Positions 4,346 to 45,540 of a stretch of DNA of 64,000 nt are shown here, in pieces (position 1 is the stretch's first letter; every line of letters begins with the position of its first letter). Location of the stretch: contig CAWBAT010000003.1 in assembly GCA_963786955.1 (NCBI GenBank), forward strand, positions 256,001-320,000, given 5' to 3'. Source of the stretch: an uncultured Acidimicrobiia bacterium. GTDB taxonomy: Bacteria > Acidobacteriota > Terriglobia > Versatilivoradales > Versatilivoraceae. A program made the translations under genes and the position numbers. The notes under the pieces are model-generated. The model made no database searches and had not been told where the DNA came from. It saw only the letters and a list, made by a program, of their open reading frames with translations.

Positions 4346-4366
4346 ATTGTCACTTTGTCTGGGAGC

Positions 4367-5068
4367 GCTCTTACGGAGCTTCTGGACTTTTCCGGTATTA
4401 GGCTATAGACAGGAGGCTCCTGACGGAGCCGGCTTGTAAACAACAGTGCTCTCGCCAAGAGGCCAAGTGCGCAAAGAACCGCAGTAGATTCCTTTCAGGC
4501 CATTGACTGTCAAAGTGCCTTCATCCTCCAGTAAGGCTTAAGAAGAAATTGTCTTTGACAGACATAACCCACTTAGCGAAGCATGGCAAAGTCTGTGCAC
4601 AAGATGATGCGACCGATCTGGTTCTAATCCATCCTCTGCGTCCTTCGCGCCTTGGCGAGAGGATTTTCCTTAATATTCAAAACAGATTGTGAGTCAGGAA
4701 CAGAGCCGCATAGCGCGACCTGTTTTCGATTCAGTAGTCAGGGCGGTCTCGCTGAGACCGCCGTCCACAGGCCTCTCCTACGGAGCTTCTGGACCTTTTC
4801 CGGTATTAGGCTATAAACACGAGGCTCCTGACGGAGCCGGCTTATAAACAACAGTGCTCTCGCCAAGAGGCCAAGTGCGCAAAGAACCGCAGTAGATTCC
4901 TTTCAGGCCATTGACTGTCAAAGTGCCTTCATCCTCCAGTAAGGCTTAACAAGAAATTGTCTTTGACAGACATAACCCACTTAGCGAAGCATGGCAAAGT
5001 CCGTTCACAAGATGATGCGACTGATCTGGTTCTAATCCATCCTCTGCGTCCTTCGCGCCTTGGCGAGA
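4367..5068. repeat. Tandem duplication (408-bp offset) of a unit made of a REP doublet plus a 213-bp element with terminal inverted repeats
   Basis: 4372-4661 and 4779-5068 are near-identical. Each has gctc(c)t..cggagc REPs followed by ctctcgccaag...cttggcgaga(g) termini (4449-4661, 4857-5068). Confidence 0.9.
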
Positions 5069-23728: not shown

Positions 23729-25162
23729 ATGCAGGATTTGTTTGAGAAGAAGAATTTTCCATTCAGGCCGCTGACGAGACGACATTTTTTTGAATCCTCA
23801 GGAGGGTTTCTGGGAGCTGCAATAGGCTATCTCTGGGCCAGTGAAGGGCTGATTGCCGCCCGTTTGCCGGATGCTAAGAACAACCCCGAATTGGAGCGGA
23901 TTGCTCCCCGCTTGCCCGTGCGGATTAATTCAGTCATTTTTTTATTTATGTGTGGCGGCGTCAGCCACATCGATACGTTTGATCCCAAGGACAATAAGTT
24001 CGCGGGGAAGATGGTCGAAGCGGTCGGATTTGGGGACAACCAGGCCAAAATGCAGCGCCCCGTCATCCCTATTTTGCGAAATTATACGCGGTATGGCCAA
24101 TCGGGGATTGCCGTCTCAGACTGGTTTCCGAACGTCGGAAGTTGTGTGGACGATATTGCTTTGATTCGTTCCATGTATACCCAAGAAGTGAATCATTTCC
24201 CGGCGGTCATTGAGATGGTGACTGGACATCGTGGCCGGCAATTCAATCACCCGAGTATCGGCTCCTGGATCTACTATGCCTTAGGAACGGCTAATAAGAA
24301 CTTGCCGGTATTTATCAATATGGGCCGGCCTTCCTCGCCTGTCCAACTGACAGGGGGATATTTGGGAACGGTCTATGCGGCGACTCCGTTCGGGACAGGA
24401 GAGGTCCCGGTTGAAAATTTGAAATCTCCCGCAAGTGTTTCCGCATCCCAGCGCGAGAAGGACTTGTCGGTGCTTTCCATGATGAACGAAGAATTTCGCG
24501 AGCAGTACGCGACAGATATGGAAATTGCAGCCCGTCTGAAAAGTTATGAGCTGGCGGCCCGCATGCAGTTGTCTGTGCCCGAATTGACAGAGTTCGAGAG
24601 GGAACCGGATCAGGTGAAGGCTCTGTATGGGATCGGGGAGAAAGAAACGGATTCTTTCGGACGCCAATTACTGCTCGCTCGAAGGTTGTCGGAAAAGGGG
24701 GTTCGCTTCATTCAGATCTGCCATGGCGGAGGAGGAAATGGAGCCTGGGACTCCCACGGGGATATGAAATCCCATGGGCCGCTTTGCCGCGAGACCGACA
24801 AACCCATCGCCGGGCTGATTAAAGACTTAAAGCAAAGAGGAATGCTCAACAATACACTGGTGGTCTGGGCAACGGAATTTGGACGAACGCCCTGGTCGCA
24901 AAATACAACAGGAAGGGACCATAATCCTCGAGGATTTACCTGCTGGATGGCTGGAGGTGGCGTGAAGGGTGGGACAGTCGTCGGCAGTACCGATGAGGTA
25001 GGCTTTAATGCCGTGGAGGATCGCGTTTATGTCAGCGATCTAAATGCGACCATTCTTTATTTAATGGGCCTCAATCACGAAGACTTGAACACGGTCGTCA
25101 ATAATCGTCCAGTGCGGCTGGTCGAGCCGGGCTTCGGACCTGTCAAAAAAATTCTCTCCTGA
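23729..25162 (+). CDS. DUF1501 domain protein (Tat signal)
   Basis: TRRHFF, IFLFMCGGVSHIDTFDPK, WDSH, EFGRTP, GRDHNP. Confidence 0.93.
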   Translation: MQDLFEKKNFPFRPLTRRHFFESSGGFLGAAIGYLWASEGLIAARLPDAKNNPELERIAPRLPVRINSVIFLFMCGGVSHIDTFDPKDNKFAGKMVEAVGFGDNQAKMQRPVIPILRNYTRYGQSGIAVSDWFPNVGSCVDDIALIRSMYTQEVNHFPAVIEMVTGHRGRQFNHPSIGSWIYYALGTANKNLPVFINMGRPSSPVQLTGGYLGTVYAATPFGTGEVPVENLKSPASVSASQREKDLSVLSMMNEEFREQYATDMEIAARLKSYELAARMQLSVPELTEFEREPDQVKALYGIGEKETDSFGRQLLLARRLSEKGVRFIQICHGGGGNGAWDSHGDMKSHGPLCRETDKPIAGLIKDLKQRGMLNNTLVVWATEFGRTPWSQNTTGRDHNPRGFTCWMAGGGVKGGTVVGSTDEVGFNAVEDRVYVSDLNATILYLMGLNHEDLNTVVNNRPVRLVEPGFGPVKKILS

Positions 25163-25168
25163 TGGTTG

Positions 25169-25382
25169 GGCCGCTCCTAACGGAGCTTATTGCATTTAGA
25201 TAAAGATTTTCTATAAACCGATCGCTCCTGACGGAGCTCAAAACATTTTTCATCTGATCGATTTCCGATGCATCTAGAATTTACCCTTTGGCTCTGGCGA
25301 TTCGAAATGGCTCCGGAGGAGCGATCTGTCTATAGAACTCCATCCTAAATAATAATATCAAGCTCCGTTAGGAGCGGCCTGT
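25169..25382. repeat. REP array left of the RAYT gene (2 forward + 2 reverse units)
   Basis: GCTCC(N3-4)GGAGC hairpins at 25173, 25224, 25310 and 25362, with a CTATA(A/G)AC leader where present. Confidence 0.9.
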
Positions 25383-25852
25383 GTCGTCACGCTCTTCCGG
25401 TGATCGGATGACGTATCGGTCATCATATTCGATATGAAATTTCCTTAGCAGCTGCAAATATTCATCGCGGAAATTCATTTTCGCGTGGTGTGTTTCTTGG
25501 TTTTGTATGTATCGAACGACCCGACCCACATGAGAATGTGAATAAGAAAAAGCCGCAAAGCCTTCCTGCCAATTAAATCTTCCACGAAACCATTTCTTTT
25601 CGTTGATGAATTTTGCCGAAATCGCCTTGATATCACGCACAAGATCAGAAAGGGCCACATCTGGGTTCAATCCGACTAGTAGATGGATATGATCCGGCAT
25701 ACTATTAATGGCAATTAATTTTTGACCGCGCTGATGAATGATGCCGGTGATATATTTGTGAACATTTTCCTTGAAGTGTTTCTTCAAAAGGCATTCTCTG
25801 GCTTGAACGGCAAAAATGACGTGCACGTAGATTTGGCTGTAGGTATTGCCAT
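25368..25852 (-). mobile_element. tnpA: REP-associated tyrosine (Y1 HUH) transposase, IS200/RAYT type
   Basis: HUH motif PDHIHLL, WQEGF and catalytic YIQNQ. Restoring one missing base near 25847 gives the typical start MANTYSQIYVHVIFAV at ATG 25852. No tnpB is present. Confidence 0.9.
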
Positions 25853-25864
25853 ATTTACCTCTAC

Positions 25865-26262
25865 GGGTCGCTCCTAACGGAGATTGGTATCGTCTCGGAT
25901 GCCAAGTTCTAAAAACCGGCCGCCCCTAGCGGGGCTTCACCTCCTACTTTGATACCAGGCTACAAAGAGGTCGCTCCTAGCGGAGCTTATAGTGTTCGGC
26001 AAGAAGTTTTTCTATAAACCGATCGCTCCTGACGGAGCTCTGTTTTCCAACAGACATCAGGTTCTATAAACAGGTCGCCGCTCTGCGGCTTTTTCGTTCG
26101 TATTATATCAACCAGCTTCATTCTTTCAATAGGCCATTGGCTCCGTCAGGAGCCTCCGGCTTATAGCAAACAGCGCCATCAGTACCGAAAGCTCCGGAGG
26201 AGCGATCTGTCTATAGAAATCACCACGCCAATTTGCACCAAGCTCCACTAGGAGCGGCCGGT
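25865..26262. repeat. REP array right of the RAYT gene (5 forward + 3 reverse units)
   Basis: Hairpins start at 25870, 25922, 25973, 26025, 26077 (forward) and 26140, 26191, 26242 (reverse). Confidence 0.9.
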
Positions 26263-26277
26263 AGTTTAAAGACCGCA

Positions 26278-27392
26278 TCAATATCCTCTCGTTTTGTCCA
26301 CGACATTCAAGAGTGGCAAGCCATTGGAATAACGGCGCACATTTTCGGCGAGCAGGGCCACGAGTCGTACTTGACGGATCGGAGCGGCTCCTGAATTGTG
26401 CGGCGTGATCACGAGGTTGGGGCAATCCCACAAGGGATGATCAGAGGGGAGTGGTTCTGGTGTTGTTACATCCAGCCCGGCGCCTGCAATGCGATGAGAT
26501 TTCAAAGCGTCTACCAACGCATCCTGATCGACAAGTCCGCCTCGAGAGACGTTGATGAAATAGGCGGTAGGTTTCATCTTGTTAAACACAGCCGCATTAA
26601 ACATCTTGGCGGTTTCTGGGTCATCGGAGCGCAGCTGACCAACACATCGACCTGCGGTACCATCTCCATCAACCAGCCAGGCTCCCGTAGCTCCTCAACA
26701 AATGCCGGCTTGGGTAGCGGCTTCGGATCGACTGCCAGAATCTTCATTTCGAATCCATAGTGGGCGCGCCTGGCGGTCTCTGTTCCAATCCCGCCTAATC
26801 CTACAATTCCCATAGTTTTCTGGTAGAGATCAACCAAAGGCACATTGCGACTGGATGCCCAACGGTGGGCCTTAAAGTTAGGGATGCTGTCTTGAGCCAG
26901 CCCTCGAGTCAAACTCAGGGTTAAACCTAGAGCAGTCTCCGCAATCACAGGAGCATAGACGCGTTGCATATTGGTCAGAATCGACGAATGGTCCATCACC
27001 TGCTGGGGCAGTTCATCGACGCCAGCAGCCGTAAACTGAACCCATTTCAGGTTCCGGGCGGCCGCAACGGCTTCAGCCTCAAGGCGGCCAAGCACCGCAT
27101 CAGCATCGACAATCTGCTCGATTATCGATGCCTGATCCCGGGCAAAGACCAGGTCAACATTCTTCCCGGAGGAGCGCAACTTCTCTTCATCGGAATGGGA
27201 GAGAGTGGGATGTGTGCACAAAATTTTGATTCGGCCCGCTGGAGGCTTGGGCACGACCAATGGATAGTTGGAAACCACGACGGGATCGATCGAAGCCATA
27301 GCGGTTCCTGAACCAGCCAGCACTGCTGCAGTTCCCCCACTGGCGGCTAAACCTGTTAAGAAACTTCTTCTGGAGAAAGTTGAATGGGTCAT
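26278..27392 (-). CDS. D-2-hydroxyacid dehydrogenase with a Tat-like leader (frameshift ~26600)
   Basis: SRRSFL, GIVGLGGIG, INVSRG, GAGLDV..PEPL, ITPH. Confidence 0.9.
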
Positions 27393-45070: not shown

Positions 45071-45195
45071 GAAAAGCCGCGGACCCGAAAGTCGGGTCCG
45101 CGCTACACTCGGGCAAAGCCGCGTCGCGGCGGCCTGTCTCTAGAATAGAGTGTTTGGCAAGGATCGCAGCTCCGTCAGGAGCGACCTGTTTGCAG
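45071..45195. repeat. Mixed REP stack inside the spacer between the two IS copies
   Basis: gccgcggacccgaaagtcgggtccgcgctac, followed by RAYT-family REPs at 45118 and 45169 (51 bp apart). Confidence 0.75.
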
Positions 45196-45540
45196 CCATG
45201 CTCTGCGGGAAAATGGGGGGGCCGAGACCTGGAAAGCTGGTAGCCAAGATTGACGCGCTTTTTGCGGCTATCGGGGGCTTGTACTCAGGTTATTCGCTGT
45301 CCACGATTGACCGGCATAACGTGCCGGTCAATCGTGGCTACCCATATTCTATGCCTCTACTAACTGTAAACCCGAGGACTCCTGCATCAGCTGAAGAGCC
45401 ACTTTGTTGTTGAAACATTTATCTCACGCAGACATGCGCAAACCACATGTCTGATAATCATCTAGAAGGCCTCCTGAGTCTATCCGAATGGGATAGACTC
45501 AGGGTTAAGTACCGAACTTAATCCCGAAAGGAGACCTCTG

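Follow-up and report, generated by a model that had tools for sequence, protein, structure and literature searches.

What kind of element occupies the 1.1 kb that separate the stop codon of a DUF1501 gene (ending at 25162, + strand) from a 2-hydroxyacid dehydrogenase gene, whose end lies at 26278 on the - strand, in the 64,000-nucleotide stretch of acidobacterial DNA analysed here (assembly GCA_963786955.1, contig CAWBAT010000003.1, positions 256,001 to 320,000; hereafter "the window", to which unprefixed coordinates refer)? The interval holds an open reading frame (ORF) of 152 codons, read from the - strand, together with a short hairpin repeat in twelve copies. An original prediction, made from the letters alone, saw in it an HUH nuclease gene accompanied by repetitive extragenic palindromic (REP) sequences, and considered that the linkers between the repeats could result from a ruler-based capture or duplication mechanism or constitute a guide/memory array. 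The data presented below indicate that the region is very probably a REPtron, that is, a gene for a Y1 HUH single-strand nuclease/transposase embedded in arrays of REP hairpins presumably recognised by it. The nature of the gene (Pfam Y1_Tnp, 6e-26) and its association with REPs were predicted correctly: the repeats flank it on both sides and 84 further units are found in the genome. On visual inspection, and for programs that search for repeats, such arrays resemble CRISPRs, yet they are not CRISPRs.

Organization of the locus

All twelve predicted units are present. Their hairpins start at 25173, 25224, 25870, 25922, 25973, 26025 and 26077 on the + strand and at 25310, 25362, 26140, 26191 and 26242 on the - strand, so that the order along the locus is + + - - gene(-) + + + + + - - - and, as had been noticed, a forward run faces a reverse run on both sides of the gene. 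The eight within-run distances are 51, 52, 52, 51, 52, 52, 51 and 51 bp, in keeping with the strict 51-52 bp period originally described. Two convergent genes border the array with their 3' ends, at distances of 7 and 16 nt. The features of the window are the following.

25155..25243, + strand: left forward doublet (delta), with hairpins 25173-25186 and 25224-25237, 51 bp apart; covariance model R1 finds its units at 25155-25192 and 25206-25243
25303..25393, - strand: left reverse doublet (epsilon), with REP hairpins at 25310 and 25362
25368..25852, - strand: gene of the Y1 HUH nuclease/transposase, IS200-like and with the signature of subclass 1.2; ancestral ATG at 25850-25852
25852..26096, + strand: right forward run of five REP units (R1-R5), with hairpins at 25870, 25922, 25973, 26025 and 26077 and a 51-52 bp period
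26097..26133, no strand assigned: centre piece of the composite element on the right, separating its two facing runs and supported by a block alignment with C3 and by the fold (z -4.4)
26134..26273, - strand: reverse run on the right, made up of three REP units (hairpins 26140, 26191 and 26242)
4363..4430, + strand: distal beta-type doublet with a degenerate first hairpin and a near-identical twin at 4767-4838
45112..45200, - strand: distal alpha-type doublet, assigned by the covariance model and by its linker family

The arrays and the gene are tightly interlocked. The TAA stop of the nuclease (25368-25370) falls within the loop of the second hairpin of epsilon (25362), the first hairpin downstream of the gene, whereas the tail of unit R1 overlaps the start region of the gene; the two units adjoining the gene, at 25362 (-) and 25870 (+), have their tails towards it, and the same holds for a second copy of the gene on C9 and for two homologous loci of other genomes (L075 and L099). 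Delta starts 7 nt past the DUF1501 stop codon. In the right half, R4-R5 (26007-26096) are a copy of a dispersed "alpha" doublet, 26134-26221 form a "beta" doublet, and the last doublet (epsilon', 26185-26273), which ends 5 nt short of the dehydrogenase gene, is a direct repeat of 25303-25393 located 881 bp away (97% and 88% identity; spacing 880-881).

The REP unit consists of a 5-bp stem closed by a 3-4-nt loop (GCTCC-loop-GGAGC, a hairpin of 13-14 nt) and preceded by a conserved 5' tail, TTCTAYAAACmGrTC, usually followed by T. In its strict form, GCTCC-N4-GGAGC, the hairpin is found 11 times in the window, where 0.12 would be expected from 100 shuffles, none of which reaches 11. In two units the stem is kept despite changes on both sides (GCCCC..GGGGC and GCCGC..GCGGC), and with only 12 sequences the covariation is not clearly above that of shuffled alignments (35 to 275 of 500 shuffles reach the measures used). 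The GT[AG]G that might be expected at the 5' foot of the hairpin is replaced by GGTC, GATC or GGCC; the conserved CTAYAAAC, whose complement is GTTTRTAG, lies upstream, with its end 5-6 nt from the stem. RNAalifold, run on a MAFFT alignment in which two units with 3-nt loops were misaligned, returned no structure, and the stem was supplied by hand; Tandem Repeats Finder detects nothing in the arrays at a score of at least 30, because the linkers are too different.

Folded as single-stranded DNA, the left element (25150-25400) is predicted to form one long imperfect hairpin (-52.6 kcal/mol, z -7.2) in which delta pairs with 25303-25393, and the right element also folds (z -4.4). This predicted folding of both elements is REPIN-like.

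The nuclease and the possibility of an insertion sequence

By sequence, the nearest solved structures are those of a putative transposase (2fyx, E 3e-10) and of ISDra2 TnpA (2xm3, E 4e-10), with which both the HUH histidines (DHIH) and the catalytic Tyr of RYIQNQ align. The motifs of the protein are DHIH, WQ and YIQNQETHH; those of TnpA-Y1 subclass 1.2, whose median length is about 148 aa, are given in the portion of the source used here as DH[IV]H, WQ and YIKNQKEHH, i.e. Y---Q--HH (PMC6006769). The nuclease carries the subclass 1.2 signature, motif for motif, an assignment made by motif and not by the profiles of that classification. The same portion of the source lists the subclass as "REP: no" and as lacking insertion sequence (IS) properties.

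A second copy is located at C9:203660-204136; it displays 92% amino acid identity, the nucleotide identity being 87% over 631 nt that include the flanking hairpins, and it possesses REP arrays of its own, with three units upstream, two downstream and more beyond. The existence of this copy raises the question whether the locus could be, rather than a domesticated REP system, an autonomous IS200-type IS accompanied by short doublets akin to miniature inverted-repeat or palindrome-associated transposable elements (MITE/PATE), gene and hairpins transposing together and the doublet representing the minimal pair of left and right ends. The conservation of the two copies through their hairpins would fit such an element, as would the score obtained with NCBIfam transpos_IS200 (NF033573; 74.2 bits against a cut-off of 55), the resemblance of same-strand, head-to-tail hairpin pairs to IS200/IS605 ends and the state of the corresponding site in two related genomes, which is empty in G001 and occupied by only one doublet in G002. 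On the other hand, the hairpins adjoining the gene are mutually inverted and have their tails towards it, as in REPtrons, only 2 gene copies face about 96 hairpins, no tnpB gene adjoins the nuclease gene, and the signature is Y---Q--HH / WQ instead of the Y[IV]ENQ / W[TS] of true IS200 transposases (subclass 1.1), whose several near-identical copies are likewise replaced here by two copies with 87% nucleotide identity. Taken together with the published description of subclass 1.2 as devoid of IS properties, at least in the part of PMC6006769 referred to above, these features make an autonomous IS unlikely.

The REP family in the genome

Covariance model R1, built from the twelve units of the window and searched in the 5.65-Mb genome at E<=1, identifies 96 units, 84 of them beyond the training set; a strict motif search finds 25 copies, an nhmmer profile and the covariance model about 96-99. 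The centres of 71 of the 96 units lie outside stop-free frames of at least 150 codons, which make up 82% of the genome. The genome-wide extraction of repeat-spacer units that had been recommended reveals that the period is a property of the family: of 37 same-orientation neighbours separated by less than 1 kb, 32 have a spacing of 51-52 bp and 35 one of 50-56 bp, and when the 8 pairs of the window are set aside 27 of the remaining 29 are still found at 50-56 bp.

The commonest arrangement is a "quartet" in which a head-to-tail alpha doublet faces a head-to-tail beta doublet across a centre piece of ~70-150 bp. The right half of the locus includes one quartet: 26012-26210 can be aligned in one block to C3:339453-339656 (76%, 204 nt, E 3e-38), and portions of it align to many further loci. 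Divergent neighbours (- then +) within 1.5 kb are only three; two of them, at 496 and 497 bp, enclose the two nuclease genes and the third, at 1082 bp, is C2:122343-123389. Here ~1.08 kb containing ORFs of at most 107 aa separate a reverse from a forward REP run, in the position that a nuclease gene would occupy, and the site may be one of gene loss or replacement.

Linkers and the CRISPR-like reading

The linkers, i.e. the roughly 20 nt between the conserved parts, were compared for 35 head-to-tail doublets, taking the best match at other loci and 1000 shuffles as reference. A homologue at another locus is detected for 15 of the 35 at p=0.001 and for 19 at p<0.05, the linkers falling into families (alpha, beta, gamma); linkers therefore travel with the repeat. 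One of the 8 within-run linkers of the window, ctgttttccaacagacatcaggtt (26039-26062), shares 16 of 21 bases with C3:339572-339661 (p=0.001). The claim that the spacers all differ consequently holds within the window, where no pair is clearly similar, and fails for ctgttttccaacagacatcaggtt, which had been quoted as unique and has homologues elsewhere. Among the 66 pairs formed by 12 linkers of the window, the C9 paralogue and the G002 site, the only clear one joins the linker of 25303-25393 to that of G002 (20 of 24 bases, p=0.002). A short-BLAST of 11 linkers against their own genome gave 0 of 11 above shuffled controls, a search that detects near-exact matches only and missed the known alpha homologues.

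These results bear directly on the idea that the repeats are a CRISPR-like guide or memory array of the HUH enzyme, its linkers being acquired sequences that direct the enzyme to targets. What speaks for this idea is appearance alone, namely the regular spacing and the diversity of the linkers within the window. The repeats, however, are only 62-97% identical to their reference and occur in both orientations; Cas1 (PF01867) was not found in this 93%-complete genome, while the same search is positive in 7 of 14 control genomes; and no Rfam match is obtained at E<=1 save a chance one to a snoRNA. Likewise, the comparison of the spacers with host, phage and plasmid DNA that had been called for yielded nothing above chance level: the 1141-bp region has three chance-level phage matches (E 0.3), all of them inside the gene, there is no plasmid match (phage and plasmid searches covering collections other than IMG/VR and metagenome contigs), and no linker matches its own genome above shuffled controls. 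Furthermore, linkers are shared by dispersed copies and, in an array of G001, are tandem duplicates of one another. Degenerate two-way repeats with neither Cas1 nor any Rfam, phage or plasmid match lend no support to the proposed guide/memory array or to the capture of foreign DNA, and a guide function is extremely improbable.

Array change between related genomes

If linkers are not acquired, how did the arrays reach their present size? Model R1 finds 41 units in G001, 25 in G002 and 43 in G017. In the first two, which belong to the same genus as the source of the window, 13 of 14 and 6 of 8 close same-orientation spacings, respectively, are 50-53 bp; in G017, whose nuclease is 56% identical and whose linkers are seemingly unrelated to those of the window, 12 of 13 fall in this range and the remaining one is 57 bp.

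At the orthologous site of G002 the flanking genes are 93% and 89% identical and are separated by a 100-bp spacer with exactly one reverse doublet, of which epsilon is the orthologue; at that of G001 (flanking genes 77% and 76% identical) the 30-bp spacer contains no REP. The outer flank of the G002 doublet matches the flank of the last unit of the window (26242), and a doublet of the G002 type occurs twice in the window, 881 bp apart, around the gene and the units R1-R6. From these end points it would appear that recombination or strand transfer inside a REP attached a gene-bearing block to the doublet already resident there, and that the left forward doublet was probably added separately, the end points and not the event itself being observed.

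Smaller changes are also recognizable. Between the window and C9 loci the alignment extends over the first upstream unit, the gene and the doublet downstream of it; farther upstream they differ by one 52-nt module, C9 having three units there and one module fewer in the alignment. In G001, the linkers of a six-unit run beside the gene fall into two related groups, 6 of 21 pairs being similar at p<=0.002; judged by this similarity, the linkers of that array are decayed tandem duplicates of whole modules, an outcome that had been named in advance as one that would speak against captured spacers. By contrast, a second outcome of this kind, the invariance of the arrays between strains, is not what is seen, since the arrays differ strongly between related genomes; instead of the polar gain of spacers that had been envisaged, these genomes differ by whole blocks and 52-bp modules. 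Together these comparisons indicate growth by blocks and by modules and give no sign of new spacers being added at one end.

In addition, contigs from four sediment metagenome runs were aligned to the window at 88% likeness; they are short, may stem from paralogues or related species, have joints of no more than 30 nt per side and are not counted as evidence. A 345-nt contig (X3), possibly from the source sample, agrees with 25915-26259 save for 3 differences. Single contigs of low depth hint at variants: in one, 25367 is followed directly by 26248, so that 880 bp are absent as at the G002 site; in another, 28 different letters stand in place of 25881-26011, which shortens the sequence by 103 bp or two modules; and others carry an extra base that restores ATGGCAAAT.

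The period around homologous genes

The same spacing recurs far beyond the genus. Homologues of the nuclease are abundant in Bacteroidota, the closest named one in the genome collection being from a Terriglobia metagenome-assembled genome. Direct 9-mer repeats at offsets of 20-160 bp were counted within 700 bp on either side of the gene at 80 homologue loci (52-75% identity) of named genomes from Bacteroidota, Acidobacteriota, Verrucomicrobiota, Ignavibacteriota, Chloroflexota and others. Repeat runs number 554, against 64 in shuffled flanks; 119 of them are at 49-54 bp, where an even spread would place about 24, and the offsets 100-106 bp and 150-156 bp, with 61 and 37 runs, respectively, represent harmonics near 103 and 154 bp. 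Of the 80 loci, 45 possess one or more runs at 49-54 bp and 23 possess two or more, whereas the best unrelated six-wide offset window reaches 22 loci; a repeated modal offset exists in 33 loci and lies at 48-53 bp in 18 of these. Other periods, of 56, 59-60 and 31 bp, were noticed around Bacteroidota homologues (L060, L056, L044 and L097).

Inspection of seven loci revealed in all seven a hairpin, a tail of the TTTATAGAA or TTTGTAG type, a linker and a 50-53 bp period, with upstream and downstream units inverted around the gene. In L099, from a Bacteroidales genome whose protein is 56% identical, even the consensus is the same (CTACAAACAGGTCGCTCC..GGAGC). The linkers are varied in L062 and L099 and identical in L088 and L029, which indicates recent duplication in the latter two.

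Points against a REPtron

Several observations weigh against the interpretation of the locus as a REPtron. The protein misses the NCBIfam model of REP-associated transposases (NF047646), with 36.1 bits against a cut-off of 80. Moreover, a gene in two copies whose locus is empty in relatives is unlike the RAYTs (REP-associated tyrosine transposases), which are single-copy and vertically inherited according to the part of PMC3337134 used; a single gene per REP family is not what is found here, given the two copies, the empty G001 site and the lone doublet of G002, and the best G002 homologue of the nuclease is only 54% identical.

Both copies, in addition, look damaged. In the window the reading frame is broken at codon 3 by the loss of one base from an A-run, the sequence being ATGGCAATACC where the C9 paralogue has ATGGCAAATACC, the uninterrupted form ATGGCAAAT, and the longest intact ORF has 152 aa, from a GTG at 25826, nine codons in. 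The C9 copy has an intact ATG, and an in-frame TGA replaces the Gly codon after DHIHLLV. Current activity is therefore doubtful and both copies may be dead. Intact metagenomic forms of 161 aa, starting with MANT…, are 96, 91 and 89% identical to the window protein. In the neighbouring 2-hydroxyacid dehydrogenase gene (26278-27392, -), near 26616, a one-base deletion relative to the intact G002 orthologue gives two overlapping ORFs, and the two one-base deletions, 0.8 kb apart, may be assembly indel errors rather than signs of two pseudogenes.

Finally, 7 of the 8 window linkers and all 3 linkers of C9 have no significant partner elsewhere in the genome, so that their presumed origin by tandem duplication is extrapolated from G001. 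The dispersed doublets carry their linker along; the linkers adjoining the gene are orphans of conserved length.

Growth of the arrays and the origin of the spacing

The REPtron interpretation leads to the following picture. A module of ~52 bp comprises the 5' tail, the hairpin and a linker of ~20 nt kept in length and not in sequence, and modules are joined head to tail into doublets and runs; facing runs of opposite orientation can fold, as single-stranded DNA, into long REPIN-like hairpins. About 84 further modules populate the non-coding part of the genome, chiefly in the form of doublets and of inverted quartets, in which a centre separates an alpha from a beta doublet. At this locus growth would have occurred by insertion or recombination at a pre-existing REP doublet, leaving the gene enclosed by the 881-bp direct repeat, and through the gain of duplicated modules and the loss of entire ones, after which linkers would decay, only their length mattering. 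By analogy with IS200/IS605 and REP-associated enzymes, the nuclease would move or recombine modules in single-stranded form. The linkers would be passengers of duplicated or transposed modules, drifting in sequence while keeping their length.

It is this constancy of length that requires an explanation. The fixed length of unrelated linkers, stressed in the original prediction, recurs genome-wide, in relatives and around homologues of other phyla, which renders a length constraint plausible; simple descent accounts poorly for it across doublet families, in relatives with a 56%-identical enzyme and between phyla. This suggests that the enzyme or the chemistry of transposition may need hairpins about 52 nt apart. 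On the other hand, unequal recombination between repeats would also preserve an existing period. That the enzyme measures the ~52-nt module, either by acting at a fixed distance from tail plus hairpin or as a dimer on two neighbouring hairpins, can be entertained only tentatively and is, on balance, doubtful.

A stronger version assigns to a protein ruler the construction of the arrays themselves, cuts at a fixed distance releasing pieces of one module (~52 nt) that are moved or copied, sometimes together with flanking DNA. Fixed-length linkers of unrelated sequence are what such a device would produce, and the preservation of the period with unrelated linkers across doublet families, in G017 and around homologues in several phyla (119 of 554 offsets at 49-54 bp, 45 of 80 loci, harmonics at about 103 and 154 bp), like the difference of arrays by whole modules, agrees with it. 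Whole-module changes, however, also result from unequal recombination between repeats without any ruler, none of the 11 linkers matches the rest of the genome above shuffled controls, and the identical linkers of the recently expanded arrays L088 and L029 betray duplication rather than capture. Construction of the arrays by a ruler is for these reasons rather unlikely.

Could the host, instead, maintain the arrays, the phased hairpins acting as terminators or messenger RNA stabilisers between convergent genes or as sites for a DNA-bending protein? The location between convergent 3' ends, which is a usual position of REPs in the portion of PMC3733652 relied upon, and the arithmetic by which 52 bp ~ 5 x 10.4 bp, about five helical turns, would suit this function. 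The orthologous spacer is, nevertheless, without any array in G001 and nearly so in G002, and in several phyla the period accompanies genes of the nuclease family, pointing to the enzyme rather than to a host factor; a role for the host in keeping the arrays is, on these grounds, very unlikely.

Other repeats and neighbouring genes

Both distal pairs of the original prediction (4367/4416 and 45118/45169) exist, the unit near 4367 being degenerate and remaining below the E<=1 list of the covariance model. The beta-type doublets 4363-4430 and 4767-4838 are in direct orientation ~404 bp apart, have almost identical linkers and enclose a ~330-bp segment. Genes neighbouring the locus belong to the Pfam families PSCyt, DUF1553 and DUF1501, typical of Planctomycetota and some Acidobacteriota.

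Two distant Y1 paralogues of the same genome (C8:30960-31397 and C6:101177-101626; 27-31% identity), which likewise have Y---Q--HH, carry on either side other repeated hairpins (AACCCCTCGATGAATCGAGGGGTT, and GGGGCAACGCCCC) whose spacing is other than 52 bp, which suggests that one genome harbours several nuclease-repeat pairs. These hairpins were retained from a 12-mer frequency screen of the flanks whose threshold was too low and whose output was noisy, only clear hairpin families being kept. Near C9 203210 and C8 31500, in the vicinity of the nuclease paralogues, there are very abundant GC-rich palindromic 12-mers (47 and 55 copies) outside the REP family studied here, and more distant homologues in relatives show inverted multi-hairpin blocks on their flanks.

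Relation to known systems

Several traits of the locus have precedents. In the portions of the sources used, REP dimers are described in head-head, tail-tail and head-tail configuration, 20-100 bp apart, and clusters of REPs by RAYT genes, with discrete doublet spacings and non-identical spacers, are reported for several REP systems (PMC3116915, PMC3337134, PMC3733652). In Pseudomonas fluorescens SBW25 doublets prefer spacings of 71 and 110 bp, identical spacers never occur and the RAYT genes, as a rule single-copy, have ordered clusters beside them (PMC3116915, PMC3337134, as far as the parts used extend). Linkers of fixed length and variable sequence near a REP nuclease are thus of a kind already known. 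The REPIN-RAYT system of SBW25 resembles the locus in its discrete spacings, never-identical spacers, foldable doublets and ordered clusters (same sources and extent). It differs in that its replicative unit is an inverted pair, whereas the locus is built on direct, head-to-tail pairs of which two face each other, and in that its RAYTs are single-copy, whereas the gene of the window has two copies and a period that recurs across phyla.

The REPtrons and bacterial interspersed mosaic elements (BIMEs) of E. coli share with the locus a Y1 HUH gene that has hairpin repeats on either side, the repeats being also scattered intergenically and occurring in composite arrays with linkers, to judge from the portion of PMC8266576 taken into account. 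The window departs from them in its IS200-like protein, which has the subclass 1.2 signature and stays below the NCBIfam cut-off for REP transposases, in a stem of only 5 bp, in a CTAYAAAC situated away from the foot of the stem instead of a GT[AG]G directly there, in units placed mostly head to tail at 51-52 bp instead of alternating, and in its two gene copies.

IS200/IS605 elements such as IS608 and ISDra2 have small subterminal hairpins recognised on one strand. Their transposases have the catalytic fold and motifs of the window protein; the locus differs from these elements in lacking tnpB, in the mutual inversion of the hairpins on the two sides of the gene, in the large excess of hairpins over genes and in other variants of the W and Y motifs.

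With the subclass 1.2 proteins the nuclease shares DH[IV]H, WQ, Y---Q--HH, a length of ~150-160 aa, a low copy number and an abundance of homologues in Bacteroidota, as given in the consulted part of PMC6006769. That part of the classification assigns them no REP, whereas phased hairpin arrays flank the gene of the window, the genes of its relatives and those of 7 of 7 inspected homologues. The "IS200 Group 3" of Bertels et al. (2017), described in the excerpted text as IS200-like, without duplication, with abundant flanking 16-mers and RAYT-like (PMC5581495), may be the same family; unlike the present analysis of the window arrays, that text gives no repeat anatomy or period. In literature searches that covered articles apart from their supplements, we found neither published REP arrays for subclass 1.2 proteins nor a published head-to-tail period of 50-53 bp common to several phyla, and these two features, the REP arrays on a subclass 1.2 gene and the 50-53 bp period in several phyla, look new.

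Significance

REPs and their nucleases are among the commonest bacterial repeats and the means by which they spread are still unclear. Here, a Y1 subclass published as REP-less is found to sit in well-ordered REP arrays, whose head-to-tail register of 50-53 bp is unusual and follows the gene family across phyla. Should the enzyme indeed measure the module, a REP family of this subclass (MANTY... N-terminus, Y---Q--HH) would possess a conserved protein ruler, and arrays would be kept at 50-53 bp, whatever their linker, in Bacteroidota, Acidobacteriota, Verrucomicrobiota, Ignavibacteriota and others. Because the corresponding site of a close relative holds a single doublet, the growth of an array can be reconstructed, and the question that results, namely what sets the 52-nt spacing, is a testable one.

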